The notes: generated by a model from the sequence alone, not told the origin. A stretch of DNA of 55,728 nt, filler included, from Bilabrum cf. latius (GCA_965178125.1; 2 parts of 2 records of this genome joined end to end with filler, not necessarily neighbours in it); one strand, 5' to 3'; counted from the whole stretch's first letter, positions 35,206-55,125 are shown. Numbers and translations: made by a program.

Positions 35206-36843
35206 GTGAGCGATCTTCTGCCCGGTTCCTCACGCGTCATGATGTCCTCTGCTTCGGTGCCGGATCAGCTCGCACGGATCAGTAAGGAGCTGAAGTGTCT
35301 CAGAGACGCGAGACAACGGGCGCGCAATGGGCTGCGCCATCCGTGGTTGCGCGCCATGGAGGCACAGGTCGCTGAGGTTATTCGTCATCACCCCGGAGGT
35401 GGCGAGGCAGCTCTTCGAACCTATGTCTCTCGTCAGTTGCAGAGTCGACAGGTTTCCACGCGGACGGCTTCGCAGGAGGAGTTTCAAAGGCAGGTCGATG
35501 AGGAGGTCGCGCTCACCATGAGGCGCCCAGCTGAGGCGTGGCAGCGAAATCCTCTTCGCTCATGTCATCGAGAGTCCGTGGCACGCGCGGAGACCTTTCT
35601 CGCCGAGGCTTCTGTCGTTGCTTGGATCGACCATGTGAACGAGCAGCGTGGGTGTGCTCCAACTGGGAACATGGTTTTCGCCATGCTTGCGAGGATGGGC
35701 GTTCGCGCGGGGAAGGATTCGGCTCGACGGCAGTGGCTCCTGCGCTTCCGTCGTCGTTGGCGGCTTCGGCATGGCCGATTGAAGAAGCAGCCCCCGGTAA
35801 CACTCGATTACGTCAGACTCGCGTGTCGTGTCTTCTATCAGTGGATTGAATTCGCAGAAGCGCGAGTGCCCCGCAACCGCCGCCTCGTCTTTGTGAACTT
35901 CGATGAGTCCAGCGTGCCCTTTGCCTTTCCGGGAATGCGCGGGTACATCGCACCGAGGTCAGGAACGGAGCCCGCTTCGCTTGGTTCGCGCACGGAGCGC
36001 CTCGCCTCGAATAGCAATCGAGGATCGTACACCTTTCTGGGTTTCATTAGCGACTGCCCGGAAATCCAGCGACGACTCCCGCGTATACTCATCGGGAAGC
36101 ACACGCGGCTGAGCAAGCGCTTGATGCGTGGGGCGTCGAACCAAATGGTGGACGGAATGGAAGTCTGGGCCCGAGAGAGCTCGTGGGTGACGCAGTCCCT
36201 CATGTTCGACATTCTGCGTCGGCTTTTCGCTTCTTGGATGGACATTCAGCATGAGATCTATCCAATAGTGATACTTGACTGCGCGCCCCAACACATTTCC
36301 ACTGAGATTGTGAACTTCGCACACGGCCTTGGCATGGATCTCGTGTTTATTCCTGGTCGACTCACCTTCTTGCTTCAGCCGTTGGACGTTCTCGTCTTTC
36401 AGCTTCTTAAGCGCGACCTTCGGGAGACGTGGATGCAGGAGCGCTCGCGTCATGAAGCGGGTCATGTCGATGTCTCTTGCCATCTCAGGGTTGTCGCTGA
36501 GTGCACGAAGAGAGTGCTCTCGTCTGGCTCGTGGCAAGGCGCTTTCGATATGACAGGCATTACCAGCGGCAGGCGCCGCTTGCATTCGACCCTACGGCGC
36601 TTGTTTGAGTGTGACATGGAGGACATCTCCAGCGATGCTCCGTCTGTCGACCAGCTCCGCTTCATCAGCAGTCCGCAGCAGCCTCTCCCGCACGATGCGC
36701 TCATCAACAGGGCCCCAGTCGCGTCCGGACACGGGGTCGACGGAGGCGTCCACGGTGGTAACGCTCGCCGCGTGCCTCGTGGCCGCAGACTAAACGGATG
36801 GACCCCCCGCGATCGCGCTCACCCCTCGGCGGCCATGCCGTGA
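35206..36843 (+). CDS. pogo/Tigger-like (Tc1/mariner superfamily) DDE transposase, DD35D
   Basis: CENP-B/Tc5-like HTH end 'RQWLLRFRRRWRLR'. Catalytic triad 'VNFDES', 'ILDCAPQH', 'LQPLDVLVFQLLK', with 35 residues between the second and third Asp. Frame intact; first ATG at 35239. Confidence 0.88.
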   Translation: MSDLLPGSSRVMMSSASVPDQLARISKELKCLRDARQRARNGLRHPWLRAMEAQVAEVIRHHPGGGEAALRTYVSRQLQSRQVSTRTASQEEFQRQVDEEVALTMRRPAEAWQRNPLRSCHRESVARAETFLAEASVVAWIDHVNEQRGCAPTGNMVFAMLARMGVRAGKDSARRQWLLRFRRRWRLRHGRLKKQPPVTLDYVRLACRVFYQWIEFAEARVPRNRRLVFVNFDESSVPFAFPGMRGYIAPRSGTEPASLGSRTERLASNSNRGSYTFLGFISDCPEIQRRLPRILIGKHTRLSKRLMRGASNQMVDGMEVWARESSWVTQSLMFDILRRLFASWMDIQHEIYPIVILDCAPQHISTEIVNFAHGLGMDLVFIPGRLTFLLQPLDVLVFQLLKRDLRETWMQERSRHEAGHVDVSCHLRVVAECTKRVLSSGSWQGAFDMTGITSGRRRLHSTLRRLFECDMEDISSDAPSVDQLRFISSPQQPLPHDALINRAPVASGHGVDGGVHGGNARRVPRGRRLNGWTPRDRAHPSAAMP

Positions 36844-36857
36844 CCTCGACCACGACC

Positions 36858-37862
36858 ATGTCAGGGGCGAACGCGACTTCGTCAACCTCGAGCACGACCA
36901 TCCCAGCGGCGAACGCGGCTTCCTCGATGGGATCCCTGACCCCGACGAAGCTTCCCCGACCTCGGCCACGTGAACCTGCAGGCGCATTCTTGCCCGATGT
37001 GCCCGCGCAGGTGGCGGCCTGCACGGCGTGGGCGCCACCGTTTCGTCGACCAGACAGCTCAGCCACTCCGGCGACGCGCGAGGCGGCAACGTCCACGTGC
37101 ATCAATCCGTGGACCGCTCTCTCCTGGTATCCGACACCACCGCAGCCGACGGACCCCCCTTCCGACAGGCCTCGCGAGGTACCGAACCCGAGCTCCCGGC
37201 AGCAGCGCAGGCGTCATGCTTGGGGCGGCACGTGGGTGTTCGACGACGCCATTACGCTCAGCGATTGCGGGTCGAGGGTGCAGATCGACGCGCCGCAGTC
37301 GAAGCTCTTGGCGATGGTCGTGCCCCGGAAGTCGGGCCAGTGGATTCCTCGTAGGCTGCGCTCGCGTACGATCTGGTATTTGGCTGGGGAGCAGTCGGCC
37401 GTGATCACCAACCTCAAGTGCCAGGCCTGCAGTCGGGTCAAGCAGGCGGACAGCTTCAACCCGAAGAGCTTGCGTCGGGCTCAGTACTCGTTGCTGCATT
37501 CCCTGTGGCCCGGCTACATACGACGTACCGAGCGGTCTATTTGGTGCACGCAGTGTGCGGTGGAGGACCAGTTGATGCAGGGCAACTTTCCGGACGGCTA
37601 CTGTTTCCGGATCCGCGCCACACTCGAAATTTGCCATCAAGATCGCGTCGCGGCCAGGCTGTTTGCAGTGCACGACAGTAACGCTCTCTTCGAGCAGATC
37701 CCGCTGAGCTCCCATGCGGCCATGGACGTGGCGGAGCAGTTGCGTCGATACTGGCAGGATGCCGTGTCCTCAGACGGCCAGAGCAACATCTTCCACAGCG
37801 ACCACGTTTCGACAGACGACGACTCTGAGTTCGCACCGGGCGGACCGGAGAGCGTGCCGTGA
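36858..37862 (+). CDS. Hypothetical protein with Ser/Thr/Pro-rich N-terminus and CxxC...CxxC zinc finger
   Basis: ATG lies 15 bp after the transposase stop. Contains 'LKCQACSRVKQADSFNPKSL...WCTQC'. Sibling fragments in the mosaic conserve the frame. Confidence 0.65.
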   Translation: MSGANATSSTSSTTIPAANAASSMGSLTPTKLPRPRPREPAGAFLPDVPAQVAACTAWAPPFRRPDSSATPATREAATSTCINPWTALSWYPTPPQPTDPPSDRPREVPNPSSRQQRRRHAWGGTWVFDDAITLSDCGSRVQIDAPQSKLLAMVVPRKSGQWIPRRLRSRTIWYLAGEQSAVITNLKCQACSRVKQADSFNPKSLRRAQYSLLHSLWPGYIRRTERSIWCTQCAVEDQLMQGNFPDGYCFRIRATLEICHQDRVAARLFAVHDSNALFEQIPLSSHAAMDVAEQLRRYWQDAVSSDGQSNIFHSDHVSTDDDSEFAPGGPESVP

Positions 37863-38062
37863 GGGACCGCAGCGACAGTATCGTCGCTTAGGTGAGGAGC
37901 GGGTGCCAATGCTCTTTTGAAAATGGTGCGTCGTACGTACGGCAGGAACCGTCGGTGGGAGCGGGGCGGATCCTGCGGGAAGTCGTGGAGACTGAGGGCA
38001 GAGACTCTCGGGTCGGTCAGGGTCTCATGTAACGTGCTGTTCACCGCAGAGGTATGTGCGGA

Positions 38063-38316
38063 TCTTGGTGGATCTCTCGAGGACATGGGTGGCATACCGT
38101 TGTGCATCCGTTCCCCGGGGGGGGCGGTCGCAGAAGAGTGCACACGAAAACAAGAGGAAAGGAGACCAACCCCCCAAACCCACGTAGTGCGATCCTGGGG
38201 GGTACCCTATAAGGTACTAAGAATCCTTCTCCCGAAAATCGCACTACCTCGGGCCACAACGTCTTGGTGGATTCCTCGAGGACATGGGTGGCATACCGTT
38301 GTGCATCCGTTCCCCG
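38063..38316 (+). repeat. 55-bp direct repeats flanking a 145-bp copy of the stem-loop common region
   Basis: 38063-38117 and 38262-38316 differ at two positions. The enclosed 38115-38262 is homologous to 54470-54611. Confidence 0.85.
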
Positions 38317-41300
38317 TCGCTCCCTAACGTCTTCAGTGGCAGGTTCGGAAAAGACACCTCCGTAGGCACGCGACAAGTCCCGGTGAAGCGGGCTCGCACC
38401 GCGCTGGGCGGGAGATCGTGAGCGCTTAGAGGACCGGAGCTCTCGGGCGGGTGCGTGTCTCGACAAACTCCCTCTTGACCACGGGCGGGGAACGTGTAGG
38501 GCGGAAGCTAAAGACACCGTAAGTAGCGGAGGGCTAACATTCCGTCCTTCGGTGAGAGCCAAAAGTTCGAGTCTGCGAGAGACTATTATACGAAGTTCTC
38601 CCCTCCTCATACGTGCGCATAGCCTCCTCACGCGGTAGCGCGAGCGCGGGACCCGGACCTGTCCCTGATGGGCGTGAATCTGAACCCGGCGTACTCTCCT
38701 AGTCTGTCACTTCCACGACCTTGTTGTCGCGGAACCACTTGTACGGAGAGGAACCTGTCGTTCAAGCGGGTGCAGCCGGACGCGCAGGTGTAGTGCATCG
38801 CCTTGCATATGTGCACGGCCAAGTAGATGCCGGAACCGTAGAGGTATCACACTTCCCGCGGAGCTTGGGTGGGTCTTTCGCTGCTGTCGTCTGCTCCAGA
38901 AGGTTTGCGCCAAAAACCGGAAAACTTCTAAGACAGAGGTGGGATGCCAGGAGCTCACGGTCCTGCCGGATTGGGGAGGTCCATGCCCACGCGAGCCGGG
39001 TACTCGCCGAATCCAACGCGAGCCGTTCCCCACGGCGCACCGATAAGTGTCGGGACGCCGAGAGCAGGCACGCTGACGGCGCCAAGGACGCTCGTGGTCC
39101 GGCACGTGAGGAGCCTCTTGCGAAGCGCCGCGTCTCTGTTGAACACACAAATGACTCTGAGCTCCACCGTAACGTAACGTGCCATCACCACTCTCGATCT
39201 CGGAAAGGGCGGGAGTGCGCTCTTGCATTCGGAATGGGCGGGGATAGAGCCAGTCCAGCATGTGTGGGCGTGAAGCCGGAGGAGTTGCTCTTCCTGGGAG
39301 CATGTGCGAGATTCCTTCTCCGCGGATCCTCTTTCGGCTTCGGCAGTCAGCAGCGCACTCTGTGGGAACGGCATTCTCCGTCGCCAACGCCGTGCATGAG
39401 AGCGCCTGCCGACAAAGTTTACGCCAAAAACCGCAAAACATGTGGGACAGAGGTGGGATGCCTGGGGCTCGCGGTTATGACACATTAGGAAGGTCCATGC
39501 CCATGTCACCGCCACCATGGCGACACGCGCCCAGACCTTGGAGGGTTTTTCAGTGGTGTCGCCTGCCGGGGAGGGTTTACGCGGAAAACCGGAGAACTTG
39601 TGCGTTTCGCGTTCCCGAAGCCCGCCATTACTCCGGGAGGGAGCCTGCCAACGAGGTGGTGCTTGGCGAAATGTGGTGGGTCGCGAAGATGTGGTACTTC
39701 GCCGTGCCTTTCTCTATGACGGCCAAGCGTGCACTCGCCATCGCGCTCGGACGCCACAGGAAGAGATCCCAGCACGCAGCTCCGCCGCCTCATCCAGGAG
39801 TAAGGCGAAGTCGAATCGTGAATAGCGCTTCGCACCTTCACAGAGCCGAGGATCACAGATAGGCCCCGCCTCACAGAACCCAGCGCCATAGGGCAGAGCG
39901 TGAAGTACCTGGCCGCTTGGCTTGGCCGGACCCCCGCCCGCCCTCCGCCGGCAGCTCCTCCCGTCCGTCCCTATGGAGGCAGATCCGCGTACCCATGCTG
40001 CGGCGGGATCCTGACACAATCCGTTCCTCTTAGTGTGTGGCCGTGGGGCATGAGTAGAGCAGCATCGGGCCCTCACCAGCCGTGGAACGGAAGCAGCTCT
40101 CCGTGCGGCAGCTGTGCGATGCACAGACCTTTTCCCAAAGATACGGATCCATTTTGCCGTCTTCCCGCGCATACTGCATCGCTCTGCAAAACTGCATTGC
40201 GCAGTGGATCCCGGAGCGTCGACTGCCAATAGCAGGCGGCCTCGCAAGGCCTTCATGGACGCAGGATTTGGGCTTCTTCATCGTAAATTTGGGGTCTGCT
40301 CAGCGCGCGAAAATTCCAACGCTTCAAAATGGATCCGGACGTCGCGAGAAGGGAACTCGTTGCTTGCTCACCTGTGCGGAGGGGTTGGATGCCCGATGTG
40401 CTAAAGAGAGGATATTGTCCGTCGGCGTTCTCTCTTCACCTTGTGCGGAAGGGTTGGGTGCCTGATTTCAGACAGAGAAGGTCTCGTCCGTCGGGAGCGC
40501 TTAGGAATACTTCCGGATGGGGCGTCCAGACGCGGTCCAGGACCTCCAGCTCGTCGGGGTCAATGTCGCCCGCGCCGTCCGTGCCTTTGACGCCCTCTGG
40601 ATCGATGATGCCCACGATCTTTGTCATCTCGGACGACACACGTCCCAGCTGCTCTTTGGTAGTGCATTACCTCATTGACCCCGAAGCGTTGAATATTTAA
40701 TGAAGACCCTTCGGAAGCTGACGAAGTTTGTCAGCTTGTCGGAGCGCAGCCTGGGTCCTTGTCAACAAACATGGAGGGTTTCGGGGGCGGATTTCCAGCG
40801 TTCCGCCTTGATTTCGAGTGCACCTCGAGGTCGGGATCGAAGCGGGGCGGGCGGTTCGTCATCCTCTGTGATACGCTTAGGAGGCGCCGACTTGATGCCC
40901 ACCTTGTCCCCCAATCACTCCAGACGTAACTGGGGAACTCTTCCCGTCGTGGGCCGGGTACGCCTCCGAATCCCACGCGAGCCGTTCCCCACGGCGCACC
41001 GATAAGCGCCGCTGCAAGCGTACCAAGAGGGGCGTACCAAGAGGTGCTTCCTTCGCTCGGCAGTGTGGCACTTCAAGCAGTAGAATGTGCCACTCCCAGC
41101 ACGTAGGTGGAGTTTGCGAGCTGCCGGCCGACATGCTCGTGTGGTGACCTCCGGCGCACCGATAAGTGCCGCTGCAAGCGCACCAATACTACTTCGCTTG
41201 GGAGCGTGGCACTTTAAGCAATGCAGTGCGCCGGTTTTCGTGCACGCCCAGTCGCGCGGACGCCGCAGGTGGCTTGGCCGTAGGATAGAATTAGTGGCGG

Positions 41301-41536
41301 GTCGGTTTTGCATGTCTTCCCTCTCCTCTTGATATGGTACAGAAAGGCAAGAGCCTGACGATGCAGACGGAACTCCTGGATTTCACCGCCACATTCCTAG
41401 TCAAGACAGCCCTCGACTAAACAGACGCCGAGTTATCTTGAGCAGCATCCCACGACGCAGTGATGTGGACGGCAAGGGTGATGCCATGCTTTCCGGGCCT
41501 CCCATGTGACCGCTTTTTGCGTACCGAAACACTTTC

Positions 41537-43500
41537 CGAGGTCGACGCCCCGGCGGAGCACGCCGGCGCGGCGGCAAGCGTCGATGTTGCGGGCGGCCCA
41601 GCCATGAGGTACATGATCAAGTACGCGGAAAGCACGCAGAGCGTCGTCAATCCGTTCGTGAGCCGCGAGTTCCAAAAGGTCTTCGAGCACATCCCCCCGG
41701 AAAGCACGCAGAGCATCGTCAATCCGTTCGTGAGCCGCGAGTTCCAGAAGGTCTTCGAGCACATCCCCCCGGAAAGCACGCAGAGCATCGTCAATCCGTT
41801 CGTGAGCCGCGAGTTCCAAAAGGTCTTCGAGCACATCCCCCGGATGATGTCGAGCATGCGGACGCCCTGCTCCGGATGATGTCGGCCATGCGGACGCTCT
41901 TCCCAGACCTTGCGCGGCAGCGGGACGAAAATGGAGCTCTCCCTGCACCGCAAGCACGCCGGAAACCTGGTGCACTTCCACGTATGCATGACGGACTCCG
42001 AGAGGTCGCATCGTTGTCGCGTGGCGGAGGATTTCATTTGGGCCGGCAGCAGGCCGAATGTCGTGTACGGCTTTTAGGTACCGAACCCGAGCTCCCGGCA
42101 GCAGCGCAGGCGGCATGCTTGGGGCGGCACGTGGATCTTCGACGACGCCATTACGCTCAGCGATTGCGGGTCGAGGGTGCAGATCGACGCGCCGCAGTCG
42201 AAGCTCTTGGCGATGGTCGTGCCCCGGAAGTCGGGCCAGTGGATTCCTCATAGGCTGCGCTCGCGTACGATCTGGTATTTGGGTGGGGAGCAGTCGGCCG
42301 TGATCACCAACCTCAAGTGCCAGGCCTGCAGTCGGGTCAAGCAGGCGGGAACGGCATTCTCCGAGTCTCTTTGCCGATGATGTCTGAGGAGAAACCGTCC
42401 GAGAGCATTGCTGTTTCCTTGGGAGACGGCCGCAATCTTCGTGGGCGTCAAGGCGCCGGTAATATGGGAAACGAGGGCGGCATGTTGGCGCGCGAGGTCG
42501 ACGCCCCGGCGGAGCACGCCGGCGCGGCGGCAAGCGTCGATGTTGCGGGCGGCCCAGCCATGAGGTACATGATCAAGTACGCGGAAAGCACGCAGAGCGT
42601 CGTCAATCCGTTCGTGAGCCGCGAGTTCCAAAAGGTCTTCGAGCACATCCCCCCGGAAAGCACGCAGAGCATCGTCAATCCGTTCGTGAGCCGCGAGTTC
42701 CAGAAGGTCTTCGAGCACATCCCCCCGGAAAGCACGCAGAGCATCGTCAATCCGTTCGTGAGCCGCGAGTTCCAAAAGGTCTTCGAGCACATCCCCCGGA
42801 TGATGTCGAGCATGCGGACGCCCTGCTCCGGATGATGTCGGCCATGCGGACGCTCTTCCCAGACCTTGCGCGGCAGCGGGACGAAAATGGAGCTCTCCCT
42901 GCACCGCAAGCACGCCGGAAACCTGGTGCACTTCCACGTATGCATGACGGACTCCGAGAGGTCGCATCGTTGTCGCGTGGCGGAGGATTTCATTTGGGCC
43001 GGCAGCAGGCCGAATGTCGTGTACGGCTTTTAGGTACCGAACCCGAGCTCCCGGCAGCAGCGCAGGCGGCATGCTTGGGGCGGCACGTGGATCTTCGACG
43101 ACGCCATTACGCTCAGCGATTGCGGGTCGAGGGTGCAGATCGACGCGCCGCAGTCGAAGCTCTTGGCGATGGTCGTGCCCCGGAAGTCGGGCCAGTGGAT
43201 TCCTCATAGGCTGCGCTCGCGTACGATCTGGTATTTGGGTGGGGAGCAGTCGGCCGTGATCACCAACCTCAAGTGCCAGGCCTGCAGTCGGGTCAAGCAG
43301 GCGGGAACGGCATTCTCCGAGTCTCTTTGCCGATGATGTCTGAGGAGAAACCGTCCGAGAGCATTGCTGTTTCCTTGGGAGACGGCCGCAATCTTCGTGG
43401 GCGTCAAGGCGCCGGTAATATGGGAAACGAGGGCGGCATGTTGGCGCGCGAGGTCGACGCCCCGGCGGAGCACGCCGGCGCGGCGGCAAGCGTCGATGTT
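41537..43500 (+). repeat. 956-bp tandem duplication of a mosaic block, containing a 72-bp x3 sub-repeat
   Basis: Identical ORFs are offset by 956 bp (41876/42832, 42177/43133). The 72-bp units start at 41626, 41698 and 41770. Confidence 0.93.
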
Positions 43501-44983
43501 CAGGCGGCCCCCACATCGAGAGCGGCGGCGCGGAGGCGGCGTCCACGGGGATGCTCGGAGAGGAGAGCGGCAAGGCAGCGCCGAAGGAGGACGCCGAAGA
43601 CGACGGCGGCAAGAAGACGGAGGAGGAGGATGCTCGCGACGTATGGTCAGACGCAGCCGCTTGGAAGGCGGGTGGCGGCGTGGCAGACGGGAAGGATGTC
43701 GGAACCTGGGGTTCATGGAAGACGCCTGCGAAGTCGTCATGGGGGGAGCCGTACGTGCCGTGGCAGGTCGCGCCGGAGCCGGCGGAGGAGGCGACATGGA
43801 CTTGCAACGCGTGCCAGGGCCTAAGCCCCGGTCAGAGTACTTCAAGAAGTGGAAGGACTGGATCCAACCAGTTTGCCGGGTGTGTTGCGACAAGTTCGAC
43901 AACGCGACGCCGTGGTGGGTGAGGTGCAAGAATTGCAAAAACGAGTTTCCGGCGTACCGATTTCCCCAGATCCGCCGGAAGAGGGAGAACCTGCGCTACT
44001 TCTTCCCTGAGGACTGGTGCGCGAAGTGCCTGGTTGCGCGTGGCTGGAGTCTCCATGATGTCCGTTCCTCTGCGGGTGAAGCGAAGCGTTGGGTGCCAAA
44101 AGCTTGCGCGAATACCGCTGACGGCGACAACGACGCTCGTGCTCCCGCGCGCGACGAGCCTTCTGCAGGGGACGCCGCCTCGTGCAGCAACGCCGTGCGT
44201 CAGAGTCCTTCGCGTGACGAGGCCTTGGACGATATCAACCGGGCCATGGAGCTTCTCCGGAATGCGGAGAAATTCATCTCCGCGATGCCATCGTGCATGC
44301 AGTGTGCGGTGCAGGACCAGTTGATGCAGGGCATCGTCAAAGACCAGGCCCTCTTGGATATCTTCTCCGGCAAGATAACGGACTGGATCAAATACCATCC
44401 GGCCACTCTTGGGGCGATCCAATCCCATCGAAACGCATGGCTGTGGGCTGAGAACCACACGCCGACGGAATGGCTCATGGTTGTCGAGGATGATATCGAA
44501 CCTCGCGAAGCATGCGTGGATCGGCTACTCGTAGTTCTTCACGCCATCGCGAAAAACCCCAAGGTGACGCAGATGGCCATGTTAGCGGGGTCAGAAGCAC
44601 CGAGAATGGTCAGCCTCCAGCGCGGAAACTCCACCTCCATCCACAACTGCGAGCGCCTCTTGGACGTGCGGACCTATCCGGCGCACTGGGTAGACAACAC
44701 ATTTGTGGTCCCCTTCCACGTCGGCATGGGCCTAAAGTGGTATCTCATCAGCCCGGAGGGGAGGAAGGCGCTCCTGAAGATGCGGATCCCGAACCGAAGC
44801 TTCGAACGCTGCGTCTGGCGCCGCATCTTCGACACGTTCCAAGGGCCGGTATGTAAGTGGGAAGATTGCTTCCGCATGACATCTGTGCTGGCAGCCAGCC
44901 CGGTCCTCGCATCGACTCCCGAGAGCATGGACACGGAGTGGGGGGCTCGGGACGACGAAGTGCGGATGCAGGGCACAGTATGA
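43364..44983 (+). pseudogene. Chimeric ORF: zinc-finger domain + 41-bp linker from ORF 36858 + glycosyltransferase-like domain
   Basis: '...AEKFISAMPS|CMQCAVQDQLMQG|IVKDQALLDIFSGK...'. All three parts are in their native frames. It ends after a 1-bp G-run deletion near 44945. Confidence 0.7.
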
Positions 44984-45342
44984 AACCGTACATAATGATC
45001 GACCCGAGTGACGACTGGACTCTTGGCGAGCGATTAAACACATTGTCCGTCGTGATGTCCGTGTGCGCGGCCCTGAGTTGGGGGGTTGTCCTCGTCTGGG
45101 AAAAAACAGAGCGCGTGCCCATCTCCTACGAAGACTTGTGCGGTGTTCACGAGCACGCCGGCGAAACCTCGAGTTTTGGCATCAAGATCGTGTCGCGGCC
45201 AGGCTGTACGACGGCGGCAAGAAGACGGAGAAGGAGGATGCTCACGGTATCGCCCTGATCATCTGCACGACTTCGTGGGGCTCCATGACGTAACGGCGAG
45301 CGAGAACATTGACTGGTGGCGTGGCTGGAGGATCTCGGGAAC

Positions 45343-45506
45343 ACACGGCGGGCGAGCCGTTTTTCAAAAGGAGCACGGGTCCTTCGGGACGCCATTTCAC
45401 TTACGGCGGGCGAGCCGTTTTCCGAATGGTGCGGGGGTCCTACTGATGCACACGGCGATCGCTGGTTCACTCACGGCGGGCGAGCCGTTTTCCGAATGGT
45501 GCGGAG
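45343..45506 (+). repeat. Three-copy imperfect repeat
   Basis: ACGGCGGGCGAGCCGTTTT occurs three times, two of them followed by CCGAATGGTGCGG. Confidence 0.8.
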
Positions 45507-46026
45507 TCCTCCAGATGACCACGGTGATGGGTGGCAGCATGTCATAGGCGCGCCGTCGGAAGCTTCCCCTTCGAGTGCTGCCTAAAACTGAGAAACCTGG
45601 AGATCCTAGCATCGTATGGAGGCACGAGGTAACACCAGTGGGGTCCGTTCTCCGCTTCAATTCCTGTCCCAAATCCGATTCCCATTTCGAGACCGAAAAA
45701 GGTGACCCGGAAAACGACGGTACTTATTTCTGAACCGTTTTCCGGACGCTTTCCGGGCCTCCCATGTGACCGCTTTTTGCGTACCGAAACACGTTCCGCG
45801 CGTGAGGAGCAGATGCGGATCTCCGCGGGGTCCTATTTGTGTCTTTTTTCGGGGGACGAAATCGGGCGCACTTCTCGTGCCGATTTGTGGTCGTCTCTGA
45901 AACCGGCTGCGAGTCGGGAAAGGTGCCCGAGATGCTCGTGTCCTTGGCTTCGTATTTCTCCGCATATTCTTCAAACGCGGGCGGCAGTGGCTCCTGCGCG
46001 GGAGCTTCCCGAGTGGGTCCGTCGTG

Positions 46027-46223
46027 CAGTGCGCTGGGTAGGTCCGCAGGTCAAGGAGGCGTTCGCAGTTATAGACGTAGGTGGAGTTTGCGAGCTGCCG
46101 GCCGACATGCACATGTGGTGACCGGAGGTCACCACATGAGCATGTCGGCCGGCAGCTCGCAAACTCCACCTACGTCTATAACTGCGAACGCCTCCTTGAC
46201 CTGCGGACCTACCCAGCGCACTG
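46027..46223. repeat. Long inverted repeat (97-bp arms, 3-nt loop, one mismatch)
   Basis: 46027-46123 is the reverse complement of 46127-46223. The right arm encodes 'NSTYVYNCERLLDLRTYPAH', a paralog of ORF 50254. Confidence 0.95.
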
Positions 46224-46302
46224 AGCAGACAACGCATTTGTGGTCCCCCTCCACGTCGGCATGGGCTTGAAGTGGTACCTCAGGAGGATTTCACTTGCGC
46301 CG

Positions 46303-47210
46303 GCCCCCCAGGATTTCGCCAAAAATGGCCGATCCGCACAAGGAATTTAAGTTGCGGCGACACAGCTCGGACCCCGGCTTTTTTTTGGCTGTTTCGGGGC
46401 CCCAAGAGGGCTCCCGGCCCCAAAAAGGGCAAAACGCGAGGTTGTGGTGGAAAAAATGGGCCCCAAGGAGCCCCCAAACGACGCAAAACGCCACGTTGTG
46501 GTGGATTTTAGAGCCCCTAAATCGCCCAAAAAAGACGCAAAACGCCACGTGGTGGTGGATTTTAGAGCCCCTAAATCGCCAAAAAAGACGCAAAACGCCA
46601 CGTTGTAGTGGATTTTAGAGCCCCTAAATCGCCCAAAAAAGACGCAAAACGCCACGTTGTGGTGTTTTTTTTGAGCGTTTTCGGGGGGCTCGGAAGGGGA
46701 CCCCCCCAGGATTTGGCCAAAAATGGCCGATCCACACAAGGACTTTAAGTTGCGGCGACACAGTTCGGGCCCCGGTTTGTTTTTGCGGTTTGGGGGCCCC
46801 GAGAGGGCTCCCGGCCCCAAAAAGGGCAAAACGCGAGGTTGTGGTGGAAAAAATGGGCCCCAGGCAGCCCCCAAACGACGCAAAACGCCACGTTGTGGTG
46901 GATTTTAGAGCCCCTAAATCGCCCAAAAAAGACGCAAAACGCCACGTTGTGGTGGATTTTAGAGCCCCTAAATCGCCCCAAAGAGACGCAAAACGCCACG
47001 TTGTAGTGGATTTTAGAGCCCCTAAACCGCCCTAAAAAGACGCAAAACGCCACGTTGTGGTGTTTTTTTTGAGCGTTTTGGGGGGGCCCGGAAGGGGACC
47101 CCCCCAGGATTTGGCCAAAAATGGCCGATCCACACAAGGAATTTAAGTTGCGGCGACACAGTTCGGGCCCCGGGGTTTGTTTTGCTGTTTGGGGGCCCCA
47201 AGAGGGCTCC
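46303..47210. repeat. 398-bp higher-order tandem repeat (about 2.3 copies) with 54-bp subunits
   Basis: GGCCGATCC recurs at about 46327, 46725 and 47123. The subunit is GACGCAAAACGCCACGTTGTGGTGGATTTTAGAGCCCCTAAATCGCCCAAAAAA, with 3-4 copies per unit. Confidence 0.93.
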
Positions 47211-49239
47211 CGGGAGGCCCTAGAGTGGCCCTTCTCCGCTTCAATTCCTGTCCCAAATCCGATTCCCATTTCGAGACCGAAAAAGGTGACCCGGAAAACG
47301 ACGGTACTCTCCGTCACTCCATCTGGCGGCGAAAATTGCCTCAGTTTCCGGTCCCCGATTCCGGGCCCAGGGACCCCCGAAATTCCCGATTCCGCGCAGT
47401 GCCGAAAGCTCGACATAAACCACAAACACGACACACAACACAACACGATAGCGCCTCCCCACGCGCGGGATTGGGTCCTTCCGCTCGCTGCATGTGAGCT
47501 GCAGTGTGTTCTTGCCGGGAATGTCACTGGAAGTCGCGCTGCAGTCTGCTCAGGGCGCCTTATGACCATGAAGGCGTCTCAGCACCCGCGACGGCAAGAG
47601 GGGGCACGCACGACGTTGCGAAGCACCCGCCCTGGGTGAAGAAACTGCGTATCCACAGGAGTCACGTTCAGGTGCGCGAGAATTGGAAAGGCGGGGTAAC
47701 TGGTGCAGAGGAGCTTGTTCGCAGCGCGGCTTCCACCAGCGCCGCTGACGGTAAGATGCATCGGTCTCGGTACATGAGTCGGCACGGTGTTGCGTGATTG
47801 ACTTCACGATGCGGGAGTGTGCAGCCTTCCGCAGCGGGAGAATTGTATCTCCCCACGACCGCCGAAAAAAAAAAAGGCTATGCTGGACTCGTTCCAGGGA
47901 AGGCTATGCGATGAGTATCTCTAGGCGCTTTCCGGAAGACCCACCCACTACACGCTGGTCAGCCCTCCCAAGCGGGAGTGAACCGCGGAGCCGCGGGCCC
48001 GTGAGCGCTGCTGCTACGATCATTTCTGCCCGTTTGACTCTCGCCCACTCTTGCCGTGACCAAAGACGCGCAGATCCTTATGACGCATGACACCTCGTCG
48101 AGGTGTCGAGACTGCCTCACATTCCCGTTACGGAGACCCACAGCACTGCGACAACGAAATCGGTCACGAAGAGAGCAAGAGGCCGCGCACCTGAGCATCA
48201 CAAAAACCCCGACAGACATAAACAACACCGTACCGTGAAGTCCCTGCGACGAGGGGATGCTAAGCGGCTCCCACGGCGGCTCCTCTGCGGGAGAAGCTGC
48301 CGCAGACCTCGAGATGGGATGCACATGATTGCGAAGATTGCGGAACTCGTCCGAAGCCGGTCGCACGAGGGTCACAGCGAATGGAGGCATATCTATGAAA
48401 TAGAGTCTGCGTGCAAAGCAGCATTCCAAACGATCGTCCGCATTCTTCCGAGCAAATCCTTGGGAGCACACATCCTGCGGACGACATCTCTTTTCTGTCC
48501 ACCCCAGCGTACTCCCCGCACACACTTCTCGCGAATGATTGAGAATTCTGTGCGGCACATGTAATATCAGGCTACCATGATACGCGGAATGGCGTGCTAT
48601 TGCTCGCACGTTCGTGCGCCCCCTTCCGAATGCGCTTACCACATCACTATGTTCGTCGGCAACCGTATACACCGTAGGGGTCTTCCCTCCGACACCAAGC
48701 GTACACGACTGGCCGTAATAGCGCAGCGTAGATGTTTCGGACGTCGCCCAGGACAAGTGTCGACGCCCGGTTCGTCACGATCACTACGTGTGCACTTCAC
48801 TCACCGCCCTCCAGCCGCTAGACTTCTTTTGGAACGCGACATCCTACGACGCGCTATGACACGTAGCCGTAAACCGCAGACGGCCTCGCGTTCACTGCTT
48901 GCAGCGCAAGAGCGTGAACGAGAACCGCCCGCGTGGCACACCTTCGCAGGCGCGGAAGACAAAAAGTTCCTTCTAAGCTTGTATTCGGGTCCGAAAGCCA
49001 AATTCCACTTCGGGGTCGAGAAGGGCGACCCGGGAAATCACCGTACGCTCTGTGAATCCATTTCCCGGGGAAAGTCCCCGAGTTCCCGCTACCCGGTCCC
49101 AGGCCCAGCGACCCAGGAAAGTTCCCGTCCCCCCGCATGCGGAAACCTCCCACGAAGCACGCCCACCTCACGCTTCACACGCAAAAGTCCAGGAGTCAAA
49201 TCCATTCCGGACCCAGCAGTTCACCCCCCGTGACGATTG

Positions 49240-50257
49240 GGAAAGGCTCTTGCACACACCTTCTCGTCCGAGCAGTCTATGGAGCACACGCCTGTCTTCG
49301 TTGCCTTTTCCGGCCAAAAATGCAGGGAGTTCGAAGGGGAAGTAGCAAACGCGGAAGACCGCTTTCGAAACGCAGGTGCTCAGGGAAAAACAACCAGAGC
49401 GTCCCTGATCCTCGGCAGAGCCGTCCAGGAGGGACGGGCACGGACGGGCATCGCAGATCTTGCAGCGCCACCATTCGCCGGGATGGGCGACCGGACGAGG
49501 GCGACCACAAGTACGTAGCGTGCGACGTCCGTCAGTCGCCATGTTGCGCTCATTCGCTTTCGCGGCACGACTTCCAGGGCCGGCCTTACTCACTCCTCGG
49601 AGTCCGCGTGTGGATTCTCCCCTGCGCACGATCTGCCGCTCTAGATGCTACACAAAGATCCCGCTCGGATGACCCCCTCTGTGCATTCTGCAAGATTTTA
49701 CGCGCCTCCATTCAATGCGCGAAGCATGCACCGCAGCAGTCTGAGTCCGGTGACCACCTTCAATAGCGTGGGACAAATTCCGTCCGCGATGTGCATTCGG
49801 GCATGCTCCCCTTTCCGAGTCTCTGTGACCCGTAGTGCGTCCGCGGCCAACGACTCAGGACTCCACGATGGTACGCACGAGTTGCATTCCTTGCACGAAG
49901 CGTGCGGAGAGAAAGCGATGCTCAGACATCGAGGCGCTTGGAGGGTCTGCACACGACATGCTTCGAGAGGCCATGCAAACATGCGAAACCAGAACTGAGG
50001 TTCCTCATCGTTCCTGCTGTCGAGCGCTCAATTGGGGCATCGGAGCAGGACGAAGCTCGCGAAGAGAGGACGCGGGTGTCCCCATCCAAAAATCCGCCGC
50101 CTTCAAGGCTCATGTTCCCGGATCCTGCATTCGCGAGTTTCGGGAGCAGAAGTGCAAGATCGCCGCTGGACACACAGCGCATGCCATTTCCCGTCTCTGG
50201 AGATGTCGGGCTTCCAGGCGCAATTCGGACACCATCGCCAGGACCTCGGGAAGATGA
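49240..50257 (+). pseudogene. Possible degraded Cys/His-rich gene
   Basis: Overlapping partial ORFs with CxxC motifs ('CAFC', 'CIPC'). The last frame ends at a TGA overlapping the ATG of the next ORF. Confidence 0.3.
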
Positions 50258-52764
50258 CATGCCTGCTGATCTGCAGGGAAGAGTCCCGCTTCGAGGAGTG
50301 GCGACAAAAAAAAGGGGCGCGAGAACTCCACGAGCACATGGGAGCGGTCCTTCGGCTCCCCAATCCAGTGTTTCCGCAGACCGACAGGGACCCAGATGGA
50401 CGCGACATCGTCAAAGACCAGGCCCTCTTGGATATCTTCTCCGGCAAGATAACGGACTGGATCAAATACAATCCGGCCACTCTTGGGGCGATCCAATCCC
50501 ATCGAAACGCATGGCTGTGGGCTGAGAACCACACGCCGACGGAATGGCTCATGGTTGTCGAGGATGATATCGAACCTCGCGAAGCATGCGTGGATCGGCT
50601 ACTCGTAGTTCTTCACGCCATCGCGAAAAACCCCAAGGTGACGCAGATGGCCATGTTAGCGGGGTCAGAAGCACCGAGAATGGTCAGCCTCCAGCGCGGA
50701 AACTCCACCTCCATCCACAATTGCGAGCGCCTCTTGGACGTGCGGACCTATCCGGCGCACTGGGTAGACAACACATTTGTGGTCCCCTACCACGTCGGCA
50801 TGGGCCTAAAGTGGTATCTCATCAGCCCGGAGGGGAGGAAGGCGCTCCTGAAGATGCGGATCCCGAACCGAAGCTTCGAACGCTGCGTCTGGCGCCGCAT
50901 CTTCGACACGTTCCAAGGGCCGGTATGGAAGTGGGAAGATTGCCTCCGCATGACATCTGTGCTGGCAGCCAGCCCGGTCCTCGCATCGACTCCCGAGAGC
51001 ATGGACACGGAGTGGGGGGGCTCGGGACGACGAAGTGCGGATGCAGGGCACAGTATGAAACCGTACATAATGATCGACCCGAGTGACGACTGGACTCTTG
51101 GCGAGCGATTAAACACATTGTCCGTCGTGATGTCCGTGTGCGCGGCCCTGAGTTGGGGGGTTGTCCTCGTCTGGGAAAAAACAGAGCGCGTGCCCATCTC
51201 CTACGAAGACTTGTGCGGTGTTCACGAGCACGCCGGCGAAACCAACACGTTCGTCCACCTCCTCCAGGACAAACGCGGCGGGTCGTATTCGTACTTCCTG
51301 AGGTACGGAGACATCCGCATCCACGTGGTGCAGCCGATGATGTGCATCCCCACCCTCGACAGAATGCTCGACATGGTAGCCATGAAGAGGCCCAAGATGA
51401 ACACCCTGCCTCCCTTGAAATGGCAGACCGCTCGATGGATCCAAGTCAAGCAGAAGTGGATCGATAAACTCCACACGGAGATGCCGGGGGCCGAGCTGCC
51501 CTCATGGCTGGAGTGGCCACCCTCAACCCACGCGCTTGTCCTCTGCGACGACAGGGACTTGGCGGCGCATAGCCTCGAGGGGAGATGCCAAGAGGAGCAG
51601 CAGGAGTGGATGAACGGCGGGAAGGACAACAGCATCCAGTACTACATCCTTGAGGCAAAGCAGGCGCTGCAGAACGAGTTGGAAGACATCCTAAAGGGGG
51701 ACAGCAGCTCGCGCCTCGTCGTGATCCGCATGACAACCAAACCGCTGGGACAGGTCTGGGTGGGCATGATGAAGCACCTCACGAAGCAGTTCAGGGAGCG
51801 CATCATAACGCCAACGTTCCTCCTCCCGAAAATGATCCCCAAAAGGAGGCACGACGAGAAGAACCCGAGTGATGATTGGATTACTTGGGGAGCATCCTTG
51901 GCGAAAACCGTGGGCCTCCTCACGCTCATACCTCCGATGCAAGTGCACTATCCCATCATGAGCTGGACCGTGGCCTGGAACCACTTCATGTTTAAGGGCA
52001 GGACTGCCACGGACACCGTGATCCCAGACGTCATCCGAACTCTGTACGCTCCGCACAAGAGCAACAGGAAGCAGCTCCTCAAGAACGGCCCGCTGTGCCA
52101 GACGAGGCGCGCCGTGCTGGACTCGCCCGCACTGCAGGACATTGCGAACAACTACTCAAGGGCCAAGGACAAGACCTATAACCTCTTGAGCTATTCCAAA
52201 TGGTTTGCCGAGGAAGCCATGTGGCACATGATCGAGTACGCCGAAAGCACGCAGTGCATCGTCGACCCGTTCGTGAGCCGCCAGTGCCAAAAGGTCTTCG
52301 AGCACATCCCCTCGGACGACATCGGCCATGCGGACGCCCGGCTCCGGTACAACCTTCAGGATGCCGACGACCGAGGTTACCGCTTCAACGCGGGGCATCT
52401 CTACACCGCGGTGCAGGGCATCAAAACGGTGAACATCGCATACAACAAGTGGCTCACCGAGCAGGCACAGAGTCATTCCGAATGGAGCTGGGGCAAAACG
52501 TTCATCAAGCTTGTGATCAACCAGTGGCGGCAGCAGCAGGGCAGTGAGCCGTATGACGTGGACGAGGAGGAGTACGTGAGCCTTCCGCGGACCTTCCACG
52601 GGAATTCGTTGAAGCTCGCGAGGAGCGCAAGCCTCAAGGACACGAGATCCTGCTCCAGATCGCCCTCATCCTATTCCAGGTCGCCCTCCACCAACAGGAC
52701 TGAGGCACAGCCTTCGAAGAGAGCGCGCCTGACCCCGGCACCCGGCGTAAAGCACGAGCCCTGA
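50254..52764 (+). CDS. Large glycosyltransferase-like protein (GT25-like domain, then a possible fucosyltransferase-like domain)
   Basis: 'LGAIQSHRNAWLWA..WLMVVEDD' and 'GMGLKWYLISPEGRKALL' resemble the GT25 motifs GC..SH...W, LILEDD and YLIS..GA..LL. 'LGERLNTL...VVLVW....ISYEDL' resembles the GLGNRL..L.V.W..F.DLF pattern of fucosyltransferase-like proteins. The frame is open from 50032; ATG 50254 was chosen as the likely start. Confidence 0.7.
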   Translation: MTCLLICREESRFEEWRQKKGARELHEHMGAVLRLPNPVFPQTDRDPDGRDIVKDQALLDIFSGKITDWIKYNPATLGAIQSHRNAWLWAENHTPTEWLMVVEDDIEPREACVDRLLVVLHAIAKNPKVTQMAMLAGSEAPRMVSLQRGNSTSIHNCERLLDVRTYPAHWVDNTFVVPYHVGMGLKWYLISPEGRKALLKMRIPNRSFERCVWRRIFDTFQGPVWKWEDCLRMTSVLAASPVLASTPESMDTEWGGSGRRSADAGHSMKPYIMIDPSDDWTLGERLNTLSVVMSVCAALSWGVVLVWEKTERVPISYEDLCGVHEHAGETNTFVHLLQDKRGGSYSYFLRYGDIRIHVVQPMMCIPTLDRMLDMVAMKRPKMNTLPPLKWQTARWIQVKQKWIDKLHTEMPGAELPSWLEWPPSTHALVLCDDRDLAAHSLEGRCQEEQQEWMNGGKDNSIQYYILEAKQALQNELEDILKGDSSSRLVVIRMTTKPLGQVWVGMMKHLTKQFRERIITPTFLLPKMIPKRRHDEKNPSDDWITWGASLAKTVGLLTLIPPMQVHYPIMSWTVAWNHFMFKGRTATDTVIPDVIRTLYAPHKSNRKQLLKNGPLCQTRRAVLDSPALQDIANNYSRAKDKTYNLLSYSKWFAEEAMWHMIEYAESTQCIVDPFVSRQCQKVFEHIPSDDIGHADARLRYNLQDADDRGYRFNAGHLYTAVQGIKTVNIAYNKWLTEQAQSHSEWSWGKTFIKLVINQWRQQQGSEPYDVDEEEYVSLPRTFHGNSLKLARSASLKDTRSCSRSPSSYSRSPSTNRTEAQPSKRARLTPAPGVKHEP

Positions 52765-53639: not shown

Positions 53640-54110
53640 ATGGCGAGCGACGCAGAACCGGAGGACGCAATGCGGCTCGACTCCCCTAGAGATGCGGATG
53701 CAGCGGCGCCACCCGAAGCGACGGAGGCAGGATCACAGAAACCAGATCATGCGCAGCAGTTCTTCGAGGAGCCCTGCCCGAAAGACGGACACATGGAAGC
53801 GCTAGAGAAGACCGCCAAGACGGACGAACCTGGCGACACACCCTTGTTCGTCGACAAGTGGACGGCAGCGATCACACGCCTTACCGAGGAGCGCAAGGCT
53901 CTCAAGCTCGAGCAGCGGGCTAAAACGAAGGCCATCCGCAAAACCATCCGGCAGAAAAGGCGCACCATGAAGAACGCCAAAAAACTCACAGACGACGAGC
54001 TCGCCCAAATCGTGCTAGACAGGAAGATCTTGCAGTTGGTGCAAAAAGAAGAGATCGCAGCACGCAGCTCCGCCAACTCCTCAACGAGCCAGGCGAAGTC
54101 GACCTTGTGA
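53640..54110 (+). CDS. Hypothetical protein with acidic N-terminus and basic coiled-coil C-terminus
   Basis: 'ITRLTEERKALKLEQRAKTKAIRKTIRQKRRTMKNAKKLTDDELAQIVL'. The frame is open from 53406. A diverged sibling fragment lies at 39760-39908. Confidence 0.6.
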   Translation: MASDAEPEDAMRLDSPRDADAAAPPEATEAGSQKPDHAQQFFEEPCPKDGHMEALEKTAKTDEPGDTPLFVDKWTAAITRLTEERKALKLEQRAKTKAIRKTIRQKRRTMKNAKKLTDDELAQIVLDRKILQLVQKEEIAARSSANSSTSQAKSTL

Positions 54111-54469
54111 GAAGCGCTTCCCGTGTTCAGAGAACCGAGGATTACAGATAGACCCCGCGTCACAGAAGCCATCGCAAGAGGGCAGAGCGTCAAGTACAGC
54201 GCAGTCTTGACGGACACAGATAGCCCGAGCAGCACAAAGCAGCGGATGCGGCTGCCCAGCGGAGTCGCGCACTCGGACAGCATACACGGGACGTGCTGGC
54301 AGAAATCACTCAGTCCGCGAGCACCGTCGTCAAGAGCACGGGAGGGGCAGACTCGACATGCACAACTTTGAAAAACGGGAGGGGCACGAAAGGAAGACAA
54401 ATTTGGCATTAATCCTTGATTACCCCCGCCCCCCCGTAGAATCAGAGCGAGCAGATATGCTCGGAAGGT

Positions 54470-55125
54470 CCGGGGGGCAGTCGCAGAAAAGTGCACGCGA
54501 AAATAAGAGGAAAGGAGACCCCCCAAACCTGCGTAGTGCGACCCTCGGGGGTACCCTCTAAGGTACTAAGAATCCTTCCCCCGAAAATCGCACTACCTCG
54601 GGCCACAACGTGGGCGGAAGCGGAAAAAAGCCGAGCACTACCGTGAAAAAATCCTGCATTTTACAGGAAAATCGGAGCACTACGTGTCAAAAACTGGGGG
54701 TTTTTGAGCTTTTTTTTCCAGAAAAACGGCATTTTTTTATGTAAAAACCGCGCGAAACGAGCACTACCGAGCACTACCTCGCCTCCTCCAGTCGTGTTTC
54801 GCATTTTTTTCGCTGGCCGAAAATGTCTCCGAAGGCGCTGCCTCGAGGGGGGTTCCGATGGCTGATTTTGGGCGTTCGGTTGTCGATTTCGCGTGCATTT
54901 CAGGTTGTCGGCGAGGCCTTTTTGGCGTATGTCGCAGGTTCGGATGCCCTCGAACGTCGTGCCTCATGTGGTATTCGCCGGTTTCTATGTTCGAGAAGGC
55001 GGTCGGTCGGTCATCCTCTCTGGCAGGCTCCGAAGTGCGTTTGTGATCGTGCTAATTGCAACGCCATGCTTTCCTTCGTTGGCTTCGAGAATCCTTCCCT
55101 CGGAAGCGGTACTACCTCGCCCAGG
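54470..55125. promoter_or_regulatory. Candidate origin/terminal region: stem-loop plus repeated GCACTAC motifs and A/T tracts
   Basis: GTAGTGCGA...TCGCACTAC inverted repeat around GGGTACCC-TCTAAGGTACTAAG. GCACTAC recurs near 54590, 54634, 54677, 54761 and 54771. A degenerate second copy lies at 55089-55120. Function is inferred. Confidence 0.4.

Follow-up and report, generated by a model that had tools for sequence, protein, structure and literature searches.

The window analyzed here, a stretch of 55,728 nucleotides from Bilabrum cf. latius (GCA_965178125.1) in which two contigs are joined by filler, harbors a patchwork of at least 22 fragments, ranging from 14 nucleotides (nt) to 1.08 kb in size, that extends from approximately 38.06 to 46.28 kb and is situated immediately downstream of a gene block that appears to be intact. 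That block encodes a replication initiator (Rep), a cysteine-rich protein of 443 residues, a pogo-like transposase and a protein of 354 residues, and the patchwork contains pieces of those genes and of the DNA around them, together with pieces of a nearby gene that encodes a protein of 836 residues. The patchwork is real inherited DNA rather than a one-off assembly artifact, and the chances are slightly better than even that it represents the non-coding debris of serial, microhomology-primed template switching among co-oriented copies, which was later remodeled. It is unusually clean, with 22 pieces, near-perfect polarity, measurable microhomology and an intact putative parent on the same contig, and would serve as a good natural record of template-switching events.

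Composition of the patchwork

Comparison of positions 38900-46280 with the rest of the window using BLASTN yielded 31 matches (77-100% identity, E values from 4e-7 to 0), 30 of them on the + strand and one on the - strand. A first-pass annotation of the same DNA had listed 17 equivalences between patchwork pieces and sources; all of them were reproduced with boundaries within a few bases, 16 by BLASTN and an 18-nt transposase piece by exact match, and the junction overlaps that it had given (GAA, GCGG, GTG and CA) were correct. That annotation had also set the limits of the patchwork at 38900 and 46280; while the pieces within that span were confirmed, the rearrangement seems to have an earlier start, at 38063, with a 144-bp insert enclosed by a 55-bp direct repeat, and approximately 2.9 kb is without a source in the window.

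The most heavily used source is the open reading frame (ORF) for the cysteine-rich 443-residue protein (31712-33043, + strand), together with the DNA upstream of it (31305-31983). The 590-codon Rep gene (28007-29779, +) contributed pieces 28504-28537, 28813-28958, 29110-29154 and 29618-29669; the transposase gene (35206-36843, +) contributed the 18-nt piece 35728-35745; and the 354-codon ORF (36798-37862, +) contributed pieces 37177-37449, 37544-37584 and 37623-37662. Three further pieces (50406-51243, 50683-50821 and 52215-52347) correspond to the 836-codon gene (50032-52764, +). The earlier description of the patchwork as a scramble of the element's own genes is demonstrated for the Rep and transposase genes only; the 836-codon gene, which is the source of the longest piece, may not be a member of the element.

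All of the pieces described below lie on the + strand, with the single exception noted at the right-hand end. The left part of the patchwork (38900-41487) is mostly without a source in the window and contains older or short pieces. Four of these were identified by BLASTN: 39136-39191, which equals 31305-31360, and 39191-39380, which resembles 31833-31983 at 77% identity (both absent from the earlier list); 39760-39908, which resembles 54048-54197 at 82% identity; and 40319-40363, which equals Rep gene positions 29110-29154. What looked like a diverged Rep fragment at 40152-40318 turned out to be spurious, being broken by gaps and stop codons, and 40319-40363 alone is real. The sourceless stretches also contain seven exact matches of at least 14 nt, all seven on the + strand and none on the - strand, where 0.57 would be expected on both strands together; three of the seven belong to the hairpin repeat R that is described below.

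The dense part of the patchwork begins at 41488-41599, where BLASTN and the junction listing place pieces 31526-31576 and 32113-32175 side by side with a 2-nt overlap (the first of them, at 41488-41538, had not been listed previously). It is followed by a composite unit (41600-42555) that consists, in order, of 52215-52347, a 20-nt filler, 28504-28537, 28813-28958, the letters TTT, 37177-37449 and 31965-32175. Within that unit, a 72-bp sequence that occurs once in the source of the first piece is present three times, 14 nt of the filler are a back-copy of 52322-52335, and the piece from Rep 28813-28958 carries the HUH motif. The whole composite unit is repeated in tandem at 42556-43511, with five differences in 956 nt, so that several of the listed pieces occur twice. 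At 43301-44295 lies a long copy of 31965-33042 (88% identity) that has lost 36 and 39 nt internally and in which the substitutions are clustered.

The segment from 44293 to 45207 is a leave-and-return event, in which 37544-37584 is followed by 837 nt of the 836-codon gene (50406-51243, 99.3% identity) and then by 37623-37662. A series of short pieces occupies 45208-46031, in the order 32265-32304, 29618-29669, 348 nt without a source, 47229-47308, 31503-31763, 35728-35745 and 33044-33078; the transposase piece among them (45982-45999) is an exact 18-mer whose match is unique within the window. The last segment, 46027-46282, includes a 197-bp palindrome (46027-46223); its arms reproduce 50683-50762, once inverted and once in direct orientation, and run on to the equivalent of 50821. 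The sole minus-strand piece of the patchwork is one arm of that palindrome, the other arm being on the + strand. The right boundary is formed by a 398-bp tandem repeat of 2.3 copies, with nested 54-bp repeats (46304-47213, +).

Polarity and junctions of the pieces

After removal of the second tandem copy, 22 independent pieces remained, of which 21 have + polarity (one-sided binomial P = 5.5e-6), a result that, together with the uniform + orientation of the seven additional exact matches, bears out the earlier statement that nearly all pieces keep one polarity. That strict polarity excludes random ligation of double-stranded fragments.

The junctions were tabulated in 26 rows, from which six duplicates due to the tandem copy, two rows internal to one piece and three long sourceless gaps were dropped, leaving 15. 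Thirteen of these are direct joins, with overlaps of 1, 2, 0, 3, 4, 3, 2, 1, 0, 5, 0, 2 and 3 nt, and the remaining two hold the short fillers (20 nt and TTT). The mean overlap of 2.0 nt exceeds the value of 0.71 nt obtained from 200,000 simulated joins of the same DNA (P = 2.8e-4), and the excess persists when the two filler joins are assigned an overlap of zero (P = 7.6e-4); joining at microhomologies, as previously described for this patchwork, thus stands against random expectation. Two events depart from one template and return to it: the path from 37584 to 50406...51243 and back to 37623, and the insertion of the 144-bp R element between the two copies of a 55-bp duplication. By permutation, the probability of at least one return is 0.21, which is not significant.

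Comparison of the coding pieces with their sources, excluding one row spoiled by an indel, revealed 15 synonymous and 33 non-synonymous differences, and the substitutions of the patchwork look close to neutral. Stop codons break all three + frames. This near-neutral pattern, together with the presence of stops in every frame, argues that the product of the patchwork process is not protein-coding.

Presence of the patchwork in public sequencing runs

Of the 7351 31-mers in the patchwork, 1735 (24%) are found elsewhere in the window and the remaining 76% are specific to it. Among 24 sequencing runs listed by a word search, 16 contain part of the patchwork and ten contain a fraction of 0.70-0.87 of the sampled words; these 16 represent 12 studies and 11 organism codes, the best of them may include the window's own sample, and no listed run is recorded as RNA. 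The recovery of 70-87% of the words in ten runs, even though most of those words are specific to the patchwork, indicates that it is not a one-off assembly artifact.

Four of the runs (X1, X3, X6 and X9) were compared over 27938-47937 in 30 bins, and sequence depth was found in all 30 bins in all four runs. In X3, X6 and X9, the patchwork-specific left part (38.6-41.3 kb) is covered about as deeply as the unique transposase region (about 51, 24 and 18, respectively). Contigs from these three runs carry patchwork-type letters at the source positions 37351 (A), 37384 (G), 32070 (A) and 28924 (T), and the 39-nt deletion joint 32386>32426, as found in the patchwork copy, is present in all three, which come from three other studies. 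A 70-nt string spanning a junction had no match in viral_contigs and none in genome_contigs. The near-identical copies found under 11 organism codes may reflect a widespread associate or contaminant, or an element common to several hosts.

Run X1 differs in kind. Its summed word depth is 1.3-4.7e5 across the 20 kb, in about 34,000 short contigs, and it contains 64 alternative joints at roughly 0.01-6% of the local depth, which may have arisen as chimeras in the library rather than reflecting a living swarm of variants. The window sequence is the dominant content of that run, whose longest record is 28,401 bases (compared with approximately 27.8 kb for the contigs of the window). In X1 and X6, some contigs have 12 other letters in place of 39004-39054, a small structural polymorphism in the left part of the patchwork.

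Proposed origin and its alternatives

In the proposed sequence of events, a DNA polymerase would have departed from its template again and again, each time re-priming on a further co-oriented copy through 1-5 nt of microhomology and drawing fragments from the genes and spacers of the gene block and from the nearby multi-copy 836-codon gene. The templates might have been single strands or concatemers generated by Rep or, equally, co-oriented chromosomal copies encountered during break-induced or stalled-fork repair. Later remodeling would then have produced the 956-bp tandem duplication, the 72-bp triplication and the fold-back palindrome, and would have been followed by neutral drift. A re-priming polymerase fits the microhomology, the filler with its back-copy, both leave-and-return events, and the triplication, duplication and fold-back alike; we infer that a polymerase rather than ligation acted as the joiner, and likewise the kind of template and the order of events. 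The first-pass annotation had proposed template switching among same-sense templates of single-stranded DNA or RNA, and the polarity, the microhomology and the two returns agree with the switching. Its suggestion that sibling copies had served as templates is plausible, given piece identities that range from 77 to 100% and the existence of a second patchwork ORF. The latter (P0025, 244 residues, on a 17,177-bp public contig) joins 32216-32522, then 28005-28400 (frame-shifted 5' DNA of the Rep gene), and then 32610 onward; this arrangement is absent from the window, all of its parts are co-oriented, and, being a second and different patchwork ORF, it indicates that such events recur. No patchwork comparable to that of the window was found in any of nine metagenome loci with a Rep relative, of which only one (L003) is long enough to tell.

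Several observations weigh against the template-switching account. Across the dense cluster from 41.5 to 46.0 kb, none of the contigs listed from independent runs has at least 31 letters on both sides of a junction; one X9 contig (39586-40348) ends 30 nt beyond the 40319 junction; and the bin 43279-43945 is shallow in X3 and X9 (depths of 6.4 and 5.5), which suggests that the structure may vary between carriers. The alternative joints of X1, judged from the 15 of 64 that were listed, show little microhomology, and the 'both' column for them is mostly 0. The order of the pieces relative to that of their sources has 8 descents where 10.2 are expected (P = 0.095 by permutation), short forward jumps number 3 against an expected 1.4 (P = 0.14), and hairpin stability at 46 source breakpoints did not differ from that at 1500 random sites (P = 0.29). 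The sequence without a source in the window (38900-39135, 39381-39759, 39909-40318, 40364-41487 and 45297-45644) also counts here. Finally, no result discriminates template switching from the ligation of fragments that were co-oriented by chance, nor single-stranded DNA from RNA or chromosomal templates.

If a head-to-tail concatemer or array of element copies had integrated and had then been whittled down by many microhomology-joined deletions, through end joining or slippage, co-orientation would be automatic and template switching would be unnecessary. This history is unlikely, though it retains an appreciable share of the probability: besides the co-orientation of the pieces, it would account for forward jumps along a single source (31360>31833, 31576>32113, 28537>28813 and 33042>37544), for the two small internal deletions within the long copy, and for a number of descents (8 versus 10.2) that is somewhat below random. 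However, the 8 wrap-arounds among 21 pieces would demand about nine full copies (more than 200 kb, if the unit corresponds to 28-54.6 kb) cut down to 7 kb, and the test of piece order falls short of significance. Both the insert-with-return events and the duplicated 55 bp around R represent insertion, not deletion, and piece identities of 77-100% are unlike those of a single array of equal age. The strictly sense polarity of the pieces relative to all of the ORFs could also be explained if a reverse transcriptase had jumped between sense RNAs of the element and the 836-codon gene, with subsequent integration of the chimeric cDNA, and pieces of 18-60 nt with overlaps of 0-5 nt are reminiscent of strand transfers by such enzymes. 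That this happened is improbable, since the pieces include DNA outside of any ORF (31305-31360, 31503-31711, 47229-47308 and 54048-54197), their ends lack A-runs, the only fillers are 20 nt and TTT, no relic of a dinoflagellate spliced leader was found, and no reverse transcriptase was detected by Pfam among 20 ORFs of the window.

The least probable of the alternatives, by our estimate, is that a chimeric long-read or amplification product was assembled and is not present in cells. Indels of 2-7% in the telomere arrays of the window and single-base indels relative to other runs do suggest a noisy long-read assembly, and the ultra-deep X1, with its many short contigs and alternative joints, is a type of data rich in chimeras. 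Against this stand the distribution of the largely patchwork-specific words over 16 runs from 12 studies, a depth of patchwork-specific sequence equal to that of flanking unique DNA in X3, X6 and X9, the presence of patchwork alleles and one internal joint in three other studies, and the five sites at which the two tandem copies differ. It is also doubtful, to a degree comparable with the reverse-transcribed chimera, that the locus has been kept for its usefulness, whether as a source of small RNAs resembling a PIWI-interacting RNA (piRNA) cluster, as a defective interfering copy by which Rep is titrated, or as a generator of chimeric proteins; the memory-locus and gene-shuffling versions had been raised by the first-pass annotation. 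A near-identical form is retained in runs under 11 organism codes, but that retention may reflect a single carrier strain. The patchwork starts at a copy of the R hairpin, which is also found upstream of Rep in X3 and X9, and a 495-residue ORF with an ATG start spans two of its junctions; on the other hand, the substitutions are near neutral, every frame has stops, and an exact look-up of ten ATG-started patchwork ORFs in a protein collection returned none of them, although a single changed residue suffices for such a search to miss. The reading frame is kept over 6 of 10 coding-to-coding joins, which is not significant (approximately 0.08 at a chance rate of 1/3).

The R hairpin repeat

The 144-bp R element at the left edge of the patchwork (copy 1, 38119-38262, +) lies between the 55-bp direct repeats 38063-38117 and 38262-38316, and a second copy (54472-54611, +) is 90% identical to it. 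Both contain a hairpin (38179-38252 in copy 1) whose stem, about 10 bp long, is conserved (z scores of -2.6 to -3.2). In contigs of X3 and X9 that extend over the start of the Rep gene, the 55 and 30 letters to the left of it, respectively, match 38198-38252 (a 38252>27938 joint), which places a portion of R upstream of Rep as well. That match is short, so that a circle is not demonstrated. R may be the origin used by Rep, in which case a copy of that origin would stand at the left edge of the patchwork.

The Rep gene and its family

The Rep protein is an initiator that combines an HUH domain with a superfamily 3 (SF3) helicase, of the type found in parvoviruses and in those single-stranded DNA viruses that have circular genomes and encode a Rep (CRESS-DNA viruses). 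In an alignment of 11 sequences, both histidines of its HUH motif (H285 and H287) are invariant in all 11, as are Tyr335 and Lys340, which have a spacing of Y-x4-K. The textbook catalytic tyrosine motif, as quoted in a published study, is YxxK (PMC10288648), from which that spacing departs. The Walker A motif (G454..G459-K460-T461) and Walker B motif (D500-E501) are likewise conserved, with G454, S456, G459, K460 and E501 invariant and T461 and D500 nearly so. An AlphaFold model of the protein (mean predicted local distance difference test score, pLDDT, of 74.6) has as its best match in the PDB the Rep68 protein of AAV2 (E = 2.4e-8 over 493 columns), followed by the Rep of Vientovirus (a redondovirus), B19V NS1, papillomavirus E1 and SV40 large T. 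In all there were 42 matches at E <= 1e-3, and their low TM-scores (about 0.2) are what multi-domain chains would be expected to give.

This Rep belongs to a large family that is unannotated and has no Pfam model: Pfam assigned no family to the window protein, and none of ten relatives scored above a curated cut-off. A sequence search of the PDB with the protein gave no match, and an Atlas feature search pointed to clusters of the Gemini_AL1 type, which is a lead only. While a word-indexed search recovered the ten relatives, an exhaustive profile search recovered 2689 representatives (at 50% clustering) with E <= 1e-3, 833 of them with E <= 1e-30; most of the 150 representatives listed are about 600-700 residues in length. 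No relative was confirmed among 20 pattern matches in viral_contigs. A palindrome containing (CA)n/(GT)n lies just downstream of the gene, at 29984-30035, and an X9 contig that ends at 30025 continues into a repeat of the GTGTGG type.

Other genes of the block, the 836-codon gene and a related locus

The Rep gene, the 443-codon ORF, the transposase gene and the 354-codon ORF all lie on one strand. The transposase was assigned to DDE_1 (PF03184) with a score of 44.7 bits against a cut-off of 22, the sole match in a Pfam scan of 20 window ORFs; its Atlas neighbors are DDE_1 clusters, and the Oomycota origin of those neighbors is a lead only as regards the carrier. Self-comparison of the contig, which starts only 70 nt before the Rep ORF, revealed no inverted repeat around the transposase gene or the gene block. 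Between the 443-codon ORF and the transposase gene lies a diverged tandem duplication of approximately 470 bp (33244-34225, 84% identity).

The 443-residue protein has only two database matches, one of them on a 25.9-kb contig that also carries the 836-codon gene. The family to which the latter belongs, with members of 836-859 residues, is small and conserved (eight matches at 28-99% identity); its N-terminus weakly resembles glycosyltransferase family 25 (GT25), with a weak Glyco_transf_25 match in two of the eight members. The AlphaFold model of the 836-residue protein (pLDDT 49.1) is too poor for searching, although its N-terminal 130 residues are modeled fairly well. A comparison at the protein level of 46.3-55.7 kb with 27.9-38.9 kb revealed no similarity besides R.

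The metagenome locus L003, one of the nine with a Rep relative, is 13,155 bp in length and has identical 99-bp ends, which suggest a circle or a tandem unit of 13,056 bp. All of its ORFs lie on one strand, and its Rep and transposase are 30% and 28% identical to the corresponding window proteins; the DDE_1 transposase is split, and the homologue scores 23.7 bits. Because both proteins are encoded in L003, the linkage of Rep and transposase is conserved, and this locus may represent a circular genome belonging to the same family of elements.

Comparison with known systems

Template switching is already known to generate patchworks, in defective viral DNAs, in Helitron captures and in complex rearrangements of chromosomes. 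Geminiviruses and nanoviruses produce defective subgenomic DNAs that are rearranged, deleted and reiterated, that combine their own and foreign pieces, and that display one polarity and short junction homologies. The patchwork resembles them in its position beside an HUH Rep, its polarity and its short junction homologies. It differs in being part of a contig of at least 27.8 kb beside a full gene set, rather than a small separate circle, and the window Rep, whose family is another one and lacks a Pfam model, belongs to a unit of about 10 kb or more.

The capture of gene fragments by Helitrons shows an orientation bias and has been explained by a filler-DNA model, and the arrays that result resemble the patchwork in pairing a eukaryotic, putative rolling-circle element with series of short gene fragments and possible chimeric ORFs. 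In contrast to those arrays, the fragments in the window derive for the most part from genes of the element itself, not from those of a host, and the window Rep is fused to an SF3 helicase fold rather than to one of the Pif1 type. Helitron RepHel is described in PMC10288648 as a two-tyrosine Rep fused to a Pif1-type helicase. Since a Pfam scan of the window ORFs found no Helitron or PIF1 match, and the helicase fold of the window Rep matches SF3 initiators, identity with a Helitron was rejected.

In its serial joins of 0-5 nt, short templated insertions, duplications, triplications and fold-back inversion, the patchwork also resembles the products of microhomology-mediated break-induced replication and of fork stalling and template switching. 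Such events usually mix orientations and use nearby sequence, whereas 21 of the 22 patchwork pieces are co-oriented and are derived from a single family of elements and a single gene family. In animals, a small-RNA defense is known to be supplied by clusters of endogenous viral fragments, such as the endogenous viral element and piRNA clusters of mosquitoes. The patchwork locus is similar to them in that it gathers fragments of mobile elements, some of them old and diverged, and unlike them in that its pieces are sense to source genes on the same contig and that its carrier has plant-type telomeres.

Replitrons (Craig 2023) are elements of algae and protists that, according to that report, encode a CRESS-like Rep with one catalytic tyrosine region and have short direct repeats near their ends (PMC10288648); as described there, their transposases have no helicase domain. 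The window Rep, in contrast, carries both Walker motifs (A and B) together with an SF3-helicase fold, and it is linked to a DDE transposase. On that description, the absence of a helicase from the Replitron Rep and its presence in the window Rep rule out identity with a Replitron. A literature search, of incomplete coverage and with supplements excluded, found no description of an element that combines a Rep-SF3 protein with DDE_1.

A bolder possibility, which we regard as rather unlikely, is that the gene block represents a new class of eukaryotic element of approximately 10-13 kb, with its genes on one strand, that would be replicated by a CRESS- or parvovirus-like Rep from an origin in the R hairpin and integrated by a pogo-like DDE transposase. 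Rolling-circle strands would then have given rise to same-sense chimeras by copy choice, which would have become fixed beside their parent near chromosome ends, and the patchwork, headed by R, would restrain the element, either through small RNAs made from it or as a defective interfering copy. The surrounding element family may be more novel and more important than the patchwork itself; should that family prove to be an element of protists that replicates and integrates, its replication intermediates and any control by the host could be approached through the patchwork.

Layout of the window and its genomic context

Positions 27837-27936 of the window are an artificial linker (44 N, TTAATTAATTAA, 44 N) that joins two contigs of approximately 27.8 kb each; the apparent adjacency of telomere arrays to the Rep gene is therefore not a real one. 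The patchwork lies entirely within the second contig (27937-55728; GC content of about 0.6). A scan of the window with Rfam and a scan for tRNAs gave no match, nor did a search for the dinoflagellate spliced-leader motif with up to three mismatches. BLAST comparison of the GC-rich islands of the first contig (19019-21675 and 23295-24638) with the second contig likewise gave no match.

Those islands, which hold tandem repeats of 163 and 446 bp with hairpins of their own, split arrays of (AAACCCT)n that were delineated by base composition and Tandem Repeats Finder at 1331-19018, 21676-23294 and 24639-27836 (17.7, 1.6 and 3.2 kb). The array sequence is the C-strand of telomeres of the TTTAGGG type, and the carrier of the patchwork is a GC-rich eukaryote with such telomeres. 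A 12-nt motif of the R hairpin occurs eight times in the window, always on the + strand, with six copies in the islands of the telomere contig and one in each copy of R, where 0.02 would be expected; because this motif is shared, the two contigs probably derive from one genome.

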